Shown here piece after piece: positions 61,410-62,911 of a DNA stretch of 64,000 bases. The translations under genes and the position numbers were made by a program. Under the pieces are notes generated by a model. That model saw only the letters and a program-made list of their open reading frames with translations, ran no database searches and was not told the DNA's origin. This stretch comes from Pseudomonadota bacterium. GTDB lineage: Bacteria > Desulfobacterota > Desulfobulbia > Desulfobulbales > JAGXFP01. Where the stretch lies: positions 399-64,398 of the forward strand of contig JAHJIQ010000063.1 in assembly GCA_018823285.1 (NCBI GenBank), written 5' to 3'. The stretch's first letter is position 1. Every line of letters starts with the position of its first letter.

Positions 61410-61919
61410 ATGTACGAACACGATCTGAAATACTGCCCTGACTGTAACGATGAGTATCGGGCCGAAATCGAGAAATGCGGGATGTGCGGTGGTCCTCTTT
61501 TCACCGGGCTTGAGATGGAAGCGCGAAGCGCTGCCCGGAAGAAAAGGATGGCCGGGCCGGTTGCCGAACTGAGTATCGATGAGGAGCTGGTGGTGATCCG
61601 GCGGGGGAAACTTGCCGAGATCAAGGTCTTTGAAAAGCTCCTTGCCGAGCAGCATATCGGCACCCTTCTGGCCGGGGATGAGAATTCCTGCGGCAAGGGG
61701 TGTTGCGGCGGGAATTTCGACCTGGTGGTCAGAAGGGAAGACGCGGAAGAGGCGTCGCACCTGATCGACGAGGAGATCAGGCGCACCGCAATCGGTGCTG
61801 ACGGCAACTCCCATGGTGACGCGGTCTTCAACCCGGAAGTCGCCGAATCAACCTGCCCGGCCTGCGGCCATGTTTTCAAAACCGCGCCGGAATGCCCGGA
61901 TTGCGGCCTTTGTTTTTAG
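61410..61919 (+). CDS. Cys-rich protein: N- and C-terminal zinc ribbons around a DUF2007-like domain
   Basis: CPDC...CGMC, central SCGKGCCG, and CPAC...CPDC. Confidence 0.8.
   Translation: MYEHDLKYCPDCNDEYRAEIEKCGMCGGPLFTGLEMEARSAARKKRMAGPVAELSIDEELVVIRRGKLAEIKVFEKLLAEQHIGTLLAGDENSCGKGCCGGNFDLVVRREDAEEASHLIDEEIRRTAIGADGNSHGDAVFNPEVAESTCPACGHVFKTAPECPDCGLCF
61858..61919 (+). repeat. att-like direct repeat 1 (3' end of the zinc-ribbon gene)
   Basis: 55/62 identical to 62850-62911. Confidence 0.85.
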
Positions 61920-61920
61920 C

Positions 61921-62153
61921 TCAACTTTCTGAGTTATGTTAATCTCCCGATAATAAAGGGGTTTTGGCGATTTTTGCGTTCCTGTTTTCCACAACAAGGC
62001 AGAAGCCAGGAGTCAGAAGCCAGGAGAAAAGCTGAAAAATCAGTCATTCTGGCTCCTGGCTTCTGGATTCTGGCTTCTAATCATGGAATGCCGCCATGGC
62101 TTGTGATTGTTTTATGACAGCAAACCAATATCTTAGGCAAGTCAGAAAGTTGA
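61921..62153 (+). mobile_element. MITE-like element, copy C (233 bp)
   Basis: 12-bp perfect TIR TCAACTTTCTGA/TCAGAAAGTTGA, flanked by GTTTTTAGC and GTTTTTAGT (8/9). Confidence 0.9.
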
Positions 62154-62204
62154 GTTTTTAGTATCGACGGAACTTTTAGACGGCGTTGGCGGATGACAGA
62201 AATA

Positions 62205-62585
62205 CTACTCAAAAATTCTGATTTTGATGACGTCCTTTAACAACCTGAAGTGATTGTCGAGGGAGTATATTTCACACTTATTCTGTTTCGCATTCTGGGC
62301 TATGATCAGGTCCGGGATGCCGACTCCGTTCAAGCTTTTCTTAAGACATTTTACCTGAAAATCAATTAATTGCGGCCAGTCAATTTTGAGGGTTGTGTTG
62401 CTGATATTGTTCAGCAAATCAATTACTTGACGTTGATTCCTGCGTTTCAGAAAAGGGACAAGTTCTGCCAGGATCAGGTCGTTGATGACGACAAGATTCT
62501 CATCGATCAGAAAATCAAGTTTCCCTGAGCTGCTGCCGTCCCGGAAATACTCTACCCAGACAGAGGTGTCGACTAGAACCGGCAT
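62205..62585 (-). CDS. vapC: PIN-domain toxin
   Basis: VLVDTSVW, ILAEL, DLIIA and YSLDNHF acidic PIN motifs. Confidence 0.92.
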   Translation of the reverse strand: MPVLVDTSVWVEYFRDGSSSGKLDFLIDENLVVINDLILAELVPFLKRRNQRQVIDLLNNISNTTLKIDWPQLIDFQVKCLKKSLNGVGIPDLIIAQNAKQNKCEIYSLDNHFRLLKDVIKIRIFE

Positions 62586-62776
62586 TTTCGGCCACGAACG
62601 GCATCAAGATCAATATCCAAATCAATCTTTCCTTTAAACTCTTTCAAACCGGAAATTTTTGATTTTCTGATCAGTTCTTCAAGGGCTGTGATAATGACTG
62701 CAGTTTTGGTCTGAATGTGAGTAGCCTGCATTGCCTGGTTCAGCAGGTTTTCCGGTAAATCAAGTGTTGTTCTCAT
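62573..62776 (-). CDS. vapB: VapB antitoxin (DUF2191-like)
   Basis: MRTTLDLPENLL...KTAVI..ALEELI; overlaps the vapC start. Confidence 0.9.
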   Translation of the reverse strand: MRTTLDLPENLLNQAMQATHIQTKTAVIITALEELIRKSKISGLKEFKGKIDLDIDLDAVRGRKCRF

Positions 62777-62791
62777 TTTGCACTCCTGTTG

Positions 62792-62827
62792 TGTTTATGC
62801 ATTAAAATATCATTTTGTGCATAAACA
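62792..62827. promoter_or_regulatory. vapBC operator palindrome overlapping the promoter
   Basis: Perfect TGTTTATGCA-N16-TGCATAAACA. The minus strand has TTGCCT-N17-TATTTT with a TG extension. Confidence 0.75.
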
Positions 62828-62849
62828 GGCAAGTCCAAAATGTGACCCT

Positions 62850-62911
62850 CGGCCTGCGGCCATGTCTTCAAAACCGCGCCCGAGTGCCCGGATTGCGGTC
62901 TCTGCTTTTAA
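62850..62911 (+). repeat. att-like direct repeat 2 (displaced 3' gene fragment)
   Basis: Encodes ACGHVFKTAPECPDCGLCF*, identical in protein to the gene end at 61858-61919. Confidence 0.85.

Follow-up and report, generated by a model that had tools for sequence, protein, structure and literature searches.

Towards the right-hand end of a 64,000-nucleotide (nt) stretch of draft genome from a bacterium of the Desulfobulbales (GenBank assembly GCA_018823285.1, contig JAHJIQ010000063.1, positions 399 to 64,398 of the forward strand), the 3' end of a gene for a zinc (Zn)-ribbon protein is found twice, on the two sides of an insert that carries a vapBC toxin-antitoxin (TA) operon. The whole stretch was analysed and is called the window below; positions are those of the window unless another contig is named. 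In the following list of the features at the locus, A and B denote the two copies of the gene end, and attL-like and attR-like liken them to the left and right attachment (att) sites of integrated elements.

61404..61919, forward strand: Zn-ribbon gene (the target gene), an open reading frame (ORF) of 171 amino acids with weak double-Zn-ribbon Pfam matches
61858..61919, forward strand: attL-like copy A of the 62-bp gene end, serving as the working end of the Zn-ribbon gene and probably of cassette origin
61920..62153: miniature inverted-repeat transposable element (MITE), 234 bp, non-coding, a secondary insertion on the stop codon
62162..62204: spacer of 43 bp at the left end of the cassette body, from the gene stop to the vapC stop
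62205..62585, reverse strand: vapC, PIN-domain toxin of 126 amino acids (Pfam PF01850, E 6.5e-12)
62573..62776, reverse strand: vapB, antitoxin of 67 amino acids (Pfam PF09957, E 3.2e-12), with a 13-nt overlap with vapC
62777..62849, reverse strand: P, the vapB upstream region and right end of the cassette, with a palindrome TTTATGCA-N16-TGCATAAA and an AGGAG ribosome-binding site
62850..62911, forward strand: copy B of the 62-bp gene end (attR-like), untranslated and read as the displaced host original

That the last 62 bp of the Zn-ribbon gene recur with seven mismatches, all of them silent, had been claimed in the initial annotation of the window and was found to hold. A and B are identical at 55/62 positions (alignment score 49; shuffled sequences reached at most 17), have no identical word of more than 16 nt in common, and both translate to ACGHVFKTAPECPDCGLCF plus a stop, the mismatches (GTT/GTC, CCG/CCC, GAA/GAG, GGC/GGT, CTT/CTC, TGT/TGC and TAG/TAA) all falling on third codon positions in the frame of the Zn-ribbon gene. 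No further copy of the 62-mer was found elsewhere in the 3.9-Mb draft genome. Copy B is not part of an ORF: it is preceded by an in-frame TGA at 62843-62845, with no start codon after that. When A was simulated under selection and B as decaying neutrally, all seven differences came out silent at P ~4e-4, and the silent-only divergence therefore argues that the two copies diverged as working gene ends in different lineages. The displaced copy had also been credited with the GC-richer codons, which was borne out by the GC content at third codon positions (GC3): the 0.74 of B is host-like (0.70-0.755 in host genes), whereas the 0.58 of A is like that of vapC (0.57).

Without the MITE, the insert proper is a 688-bp AT-rich vapBC cassette (62162-62849), whose GC content (41.9%, where the genome has 52.8% and the flanking genes 57-58%) marks it as foreign. 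As far as can be read from sequence, it is a type II TA locus of the VapBC kind, with the antitoxin gene before, and overlapping, the gene for a PIN toxin. The acidic residues D6, E41, D92 and D110 of VapC were seen by eye in the translation, and the protein has 4378 homologues, the best public one at 76% amino acid identity. P is a putative promoter/operator of vapB; no strict sigma-70 match was found in it, and scans of the region with Rfam and promoter consensus patterns were uninformative. As initially annotated, the 930 bp between the repeats hold vapB, vapC and the MITE alone, with no integrase or other recombinase gene; the MITE, however, does not belong to the element but is a later insertion, missing in relatives.

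The 234-bp insert can be classed as a MITE by its inverted repeats, short target duplication, many copies and lack of coding capacity. Its terminal inverted repeats are 16 nt long (61920-61935 and 62139-62154, 94% complementary), GTTTTTAG (61912-61919 and 62154-62161) is the duplicated 8-bp target and includes the stop codon, and its family numbers dozens of genomic copies across ~40 contigs. The core is a heptamer-periodic hairpin (CTGGCTC/CTGGCTT). It landed on the stop codon after the cassette was in place: two groundwater populations (X2 and X3, introduced below) display a precise skip of 242 bp sharing 8 bases, i.e. a site without the MITE, and minor variants in the source sample, X1, are likewise MITE-less. 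The MITE is thus polymorphic in the source sample, where the path that contains it has a depth of ~34 and the MITE-less paths depths of 17.5 and 11.2. Where the MITE is missing, in contigs of X2, X3 and the X1 minor variant, copy A runs straight into the spacer.

Carriers in other populations

Population data were taken from Logan contigs of ten metagenome runs, some at a depth of 2-10; such contigs drop rare variants, and differences near contig ends are unlisted in the comparisons. X1 is the source biofilm sample, while X2 and X3 are groundwater. In X2, a 775-bp contig comprises A from position 20, exactly 688 letters of MITE-less cassette and B to position 44, and both a gene contig and a contig with the end of B plus downstream sequence join it via a shared 35-mer. 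The depth of this cassette contig (7.7) is close to that of the host contigs (7.8-10.3), and the cassette is therefore in essentially all cells of that population. Pieces of the cassette were also found, at 93-96% identity and low depth, in X7, X8, X9 and X10 (freshwater, salt marsh, wetland and sediment).

The divergence of the cassette does not follow that of its hosts. The X2 host differs from this genome by 8.7% in hslV, 11.1% in hslU and 14.6% in the Zn-ribbon gene, and by 12.8% in total over 5.1 kb of flanking host genes of equal depth, while the cassette differs by only 5.7% (40/696; p 6e-9 against the host). The X3 host is near-identical, with a gene body 1.5% different, but the difference rises to 5.1% over A, the cassette and the region following B (p 0.013). 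Being diverged alike (~5-6%) in hosts that are 1.5% or ~13% apart, the cassette is uncoupled from its host.

The border between P and B marks a sharp break. Positions 62780-62849 display 0 differences from X2 and X8, although the coding part is ~6% different, whereas B differs from the B of X2 at 8/62 positions (8/62 versus 0/70, Fisher p 0.0018). All eight changes are silent or stop-to-stop (GCC/GCA, GGC/GGA, GCG/GCC, CCC/CCG, GAG/GAA, TGC/TGT, TTT/TTC and TAA/TGA). The B of X8 has nine differences, eight of them silent and one a His to Asn change at a residue variable among orthologues, plus a doubtful 1-nt insertion in a contig of depth 2. Since the changes between B copies are almost all silent, these copies diverged as working ends, and about as much as their hosts did. 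A differs from the A of X2 at only 3/62 positions. After the stop of B nothing is alignable: this genome continues with CAGCCGCC.., X2 with TGGGCTGTAATCGG.. and X8 with ATGAATTC.. Host-like GC3, host-like divergence and host-specific sequence following it all argue that B is the host original, and the simplest reading of these comparisons is that B would in each case be the host's own displaced end, while A would travel with the cassette.

Could the junction be an artefact in which the contig joins the gene copies of two strains? The assembly is a metagenome-assembled draft in 83 contigs, and the source sample contains at least two related populations. Nevertheless, the source run has a 5085-bp Logan contig, at a depth of 52 (neighbouring contigs 47 and 55), that runs unbroken through P and B into the downstream sequence, A and B have no common word above 16 nt that could mislead an assembler, and the same P-to-B junction appears in the independent runs X2 and X8, which come from other studies. 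An artefact can practically be dismissed.

X1 also contains a second, more diverged allele of the Zn-ribbon gene end, with 15/112 differences and unalignable further upstream, which leads into the same vapBC contig. The contigs concerned cover 61808-61919 and 62158-62226 and come either from another host population sharing the cassette or from bubbles popped by the assembler.

Relic of a second cassette

Downstream of B, the remains of an older cassette are found in the same order, with the following features.

62921..63001: second small multi-copy repeat, hairpin-bearing and ~80 nt long, which has inserted into the older cassette's relic
63032..63060, reverse strand: vapC fragment of the decayed second cassette, corresponding to 62368-62396
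63060..63093, reverse strand: P', a copy of the vapB upstream region, 30/34 identical to 62808-62841
63115..63159, forward strand: copy C (..TAPVIPDCEFF..), probably a third gene end in decay, spaced from P' as expected

P' is the clearest of these, with a score of 48 against a shuffle maximum of 25 (26 against 17 in a second test), and no other copy of P or P' was found in the genome beyond this locus. It is fused directly to the vapC fragment, ~411 bp having been deleted between the two. The fragment is identical to vapC at 19/20 and 24/29 nt and scores 18, where the 99th percentile of the null is 16; tblastn pairs NDTTKKIDRPQL with SNTTLKIDWPQL (E 0.009). Judged from these alignments, what follows B is the relic of a second cassette (vapC fragment and P'), collinear with the first and deleted internally. 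Copy C matches the gene end at 17/23 nt, which taken alone is weak nucleotide evidence; the start-to-start spacing is 251, against 252 for P and P', and tblastn aligns TAPVIPDC with TAPECPDC at E 0.005 (489-nt subject). With missense changes and a lost stop, copy C looks as a long-dead copy should, and copy B does not. The array thus appears to have the order expected of tandem accretion, namely A, cassette 1, B, relic cassette 2 and C, with C as its weakest part. A heavily decayed C beside a pristine B fits serial insertion rather than unequal crossing-over.

A local tandem duplication of the gene end, vapBC and the upstream region, after which the second unit decayed and no integration took place, would also yield a collinear series, since the second unit (B, vapC fragment and P') parallels the first. 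Copy C being weak at the nucleotide level, a third gene end is not strictly required either. However, B would in that case have been dead from birth, and yet its differences from A and from the B copies of other populations are only silent; X2 has A, cassette and B with no alignable relic of a second unit after B; the sequences after P and P' differ; and copy C lies at the right offset with support at the protein level (E 0.005). Such a duplication is therefore improbable.

A stretch thought to be the relic of a third cassette (63151-63201, compared with vapC at 62337-62382) scored 12, which is the null mean, and was not counted. The ~80-nt repeat at 62921-63001 belongs to a family with many copies in the genome that is also present in several metagenomes: a query of 62912-63059 returned many genomic matches at its positions 10-90, and its summed depth in X1 was very high. 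Immediately after the relic region, a gene begins that runs off the end of the window (63384-64000); it encodes a large secreted protein with thrombospondin type-3-like repeats and a signal peptide. X2 has 91% identity over the intergenic stretch upstream of this gene (63202-63376).

Candidate routes of integration

The target gene closes a conserved cluster in the order xerC-like gene, hslV, hslU and Zn-ribbon gene, the other members of which are the following.

58162-59094: xerC-like tyrosine recombinase gene, heading the cluster xerC-hslV-hslU-ZnR
59158-59709: hslV
59878-61290: hslU

This layout is the same as that of codV-clpQ-clpY in Bacillus, and in this order of bacteria the Zn-ribbon gene seems to form a fourth, conserved and so far uncharacterised part of the xerC-hslV-hslU cluster. 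It was found in 356/401 genomes of the order (Desulfobulbales-like in these counts, by the names attached to homologues), is single-copy and adjoins hslU in the loci read; its end is single-copy in the 29 relatives read and in ~355 genomes searched. In this genome the gene is intact, its C-terminus agreeing with the conserved CPxCG..CPDCGLCF of relatives. The closest Zn-ribbon proteins in protein collections have at most 65% amino acid identity, and these distant relatives have one gene end.

At odds that we would put at roughly 0.55, the locus holds an integrase-less, att-flanked cassette with which copy A arrived, copy B being the displaced host end, and such cassettes were acquired repeatedly, here twice in series. 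According to this model, a 688-bp vapBC cassette would have integrated in the last 62 bp of the Zn-ribbon gene, bringing its own copy A, which would now complete the gene, while the original end B would have been pushed downstream, where it stands untranslated. The crossover would lie at the very left edge of the repeat, as it does for integrase-type insertion into tRNA and protein genes, and recombination of an attP-like gene end borne by the element with the attB-like chromosomal end would give the arrangement observed. Integration would have occurred at least two times in series here, the older cassette now being a relic. Since the cassette encodes no recombinase, recombination must have been in trans, and the agent might be either some site-specific recombinase or host homologous recombination through the carried gene end; vapBC would presumably stabilise the insert by addiction. 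The mechanism we infer to be the most likely, which like the model itself lies a little on the probable side, is accordingly one in which a cassette-borne gene end recombines in trans with the chromosomal gene end and the insert is kept by vapBC. Observed were the arrangement of the parts, divergence by silent changes only, the relic of a serial insertion, carriers in other populations and a cassette divergence independent of the host; the direction of the exchange (A from the element, B from the host), the independence of the acquisitions and the mode of recombination are inferred.

The insertion proposed in the initial annotation thus survives in its borders, with repeats on both sides of the insert, A as the working end and a host-like B, while no integrase-bearing element of the kind it proposed to look for was found. 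Several results weigh against integration in trans. Neither an integrase-bearing element with the 62-mer nor a helper was detected in the genome, in GTDB representatives, in JGI metagenomes or in IMG/VR, the last three having been searched (JGI as metagenome contigs) with a codon-degenerate pattern for the gene-end peptide plus the P motif. The cassette neither contains nor adjoins a recombinase gene, the nearest of the ten tyrosine recombinases of the genome being the conserved xerC-like gene, 2.8 kb upstream and outside the element. A joint skipping 992 bp, an empty site or a circle junction was not seen in the Logan contigs of the ten runs, which as contigs cannot show rare forms, and the cassette is as deeply covered as its flanks in X1 and X2. 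A duplicated end of the Zn-ribbon gene was found in 0/400 genomes of the order (protein search, E <=0.1; all 35 genomes with at least two matches were re-read), no vapBC was found near this gene in 29 relatives, and flanking repeats were absent at two homologous vapBC loci in other taxa. The 0 differences reported for the A end of X2 conflict with graph logic at 61886, and a P-B junction identical in all populations is also what a single ancestral insertion would leave. Finally, direct repeats of 47-135 bp also enclose at least four other TA operons of this genome, at sites that are intergenic and unrelated, which weakens the case for a dedicated integrase at this one site.

Some candidates were considered and set aside. 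C-terminal fragments that resembled duplicated gene ends were explained by contigs that overlap (G317) or by genes broken at the ends of contigs (G044 and G088). The use of Xer and dif, as by integrative mobile elements exploiting Xer (IMEX), does not fit: the P motif matches the dif consensus at 13/28 positions and the insertion is in a gene end, not at dif. A candidate chromosomal dif, ATGTCGCATAATGTATATTATGTATAAT, lies on another contig (C52:28496-28523), with 22/28 matches to the proteobacterial consensus. An integron cassette was rejected as well, neither border having a GTT core or attC and no intI-like gene being adjacent.

The four other TA operons emerged from a self-comparison of the genome that gave 31 low-copy direct-repeat pairs 0.3-6 kb apart. 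Their sites are C40:34987-36749, C74:9452-10681, C3:34395-35581 and C3:129491-130663, and their contents are as follows.

HipB-like protein and HipA: between two copies of a 47-bp terminator hairpin
Ribbon-helix-helix (RHH) protein and PemK/MazF: between 68-bp repeats
MazE-type antitoxin and PIN protein: between 84-bp repeats
RHH protein and ParE: between 135-bp repeats

No junction motif common to the repeat-flanked TA cassettes of the genome was seen, and the four recall the long target duplications known from restriction-modification units (PMC2853133). Such cassettes seem to be a habit of this genome, and a generic, recombinase-free and non-site-specific route therefore stays a serious rival. 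It would consist of one ancestral insertion with duplication of a long target, made without a recombinase and inherited vertically ever since, conversion or allelic recombination keeping B silent-only. A cassette with no mobility gene would suit it, as would a 62-bp repeat that is longer than 30 bp, overlaps a gene end and aligns to a single-copy target, in the manner of restriction-modification units (Furuta et al. 2010, PMC2853133). It would also account for the identical P-B junction in this genome, X2 and X8, for the four TA cassettes between repeats of 47-135 bp at unrelated sites and for the fact that every known carrier has the cassette at the same site, no empty site being known among close relatives. 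All close relatives found do carry the cassette: run searches with the whole region, the cassette alone and the host genes alone returned only carriers or runs too shallow to judge (e.g. X4). In X2, moreover, A and B share an identical 35-mer, and silent variants are common to A and B copies across lineages, both being the expected footprints of conversion.

However, A and B would be identical at the moment of a target duplication and B would then decay at random, in which case seven silent differences have a chance of ~4e-4; the differences between B copies are silent too. Conversion from A cannot explain a host-diverged B beside an invariant cassette end (p 0.0018), it leaves unexplained why the cassette is half as diverged as hslVU, and a pristine B beside a decayed C needs two events at one site. 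We regard a single ancestral insertion as unlikely, although less so than the other rivals, and retain integration in trans as the preferred model.

A bolder version of that model, possible but tentative and less likely than not, is that mini-cassettes consisting of a TA operon alone are autonomous passengers, which use the host gene end that they carry as a portable stretch of homology or att site. The passenger, needing no recombinase of its own, would loop out via its flanking repeats, travel as a small DNA and re-enter the same gene end in diverged hosts, and the displaced end would stay functional-looking as the lineage cycles between occupied and empty states.

Related systems and significance

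The closest known relatives of this arrangement are the accretion arrays of cis-mobilizable elements (CIMEs) and e14 in icd, minus integrase or helper. Both e14 and phage 21 sit in the 3' end of icd in E. coli, where the element supplies the new end with mainly silent changes and the displaced icdC is untranslated; e14 has its own integrase and excisionase and measures ~15 kb. The present locus likewise has a replacement 3' end, mainly silent differences and a displaced, untranslated fragment at the far border, but its cassette is 0.69 kb long and encodes neither integrase nor excisionase.

CIMEs are decayed integrative and conjugative elements (ICEs) or integrative and mobilizable elements that are mobilised by a related ICE with the same att site, as is known for ICESt1/ICESt3 and the CIMEs at the 3' end of fda in Streptococcus thermophilus, where tandem accretion occurs (PMC5704250). 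Like a CIME, the cassette is bordered by direct repeats of a gene 3' end as attL- and attR-like sites and has no genes for integration or transfer, and as in CIME arrays there are three copies of the repeat, the incoming element having displaced the end of the older one. Unlike in CIMEs, no helper was found, no remnants of ICE genes were seen, the cargo is only a 0.58-kb TA operon, and the repeat is 62 bp long and diverged rather than a short identical core.

Two further comparisons concern small cassettes. Insertion with long target duplication has reportedly been described for restriction-modification units by Nobusato et al. in 2000. Like these units, the present cassette is small, selfish and of the addiction type, has no mobility genes and is flanked by direct repeats; tandem amplification of restriction-modification units via their repeats has been proposed. 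Their repeats exceed 30 bp and may overlap a gene end (Furuta et al. 2010, PMC2853133), but they are nearly identical and both derive from the recipient target, whereas those described here differ silently only and are cassette-like on one side and host-like on the other. TA-only islets were explained in a study of Photorhabdus by larger elements that had eroded and by homologous recombination at flanking core genes (PMC13617665). The cassette resembles them as a compact TA locus with no transposase or integrase, at a variable spot between core genes, and differs from them in that its att-like borders are kept inside a gene and one flank is unconserved between carriers.

How TA operons move without a transposase or integrase is an open question, for which this locus offers a clean bacterial test case: a TA-only cassette with a replacement gene end, stacked twice, that has diverged independently of its hosts in several natural populations. 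For annotation it carries a warning, in that a duplicate of a gene end with silent differences only marks an insertion and not a paralogue. If the passenger view were true, the locus, together with the other repeat-flanked TA cassettes, would exemplify a general and so far undescribed mode of TA mobility.

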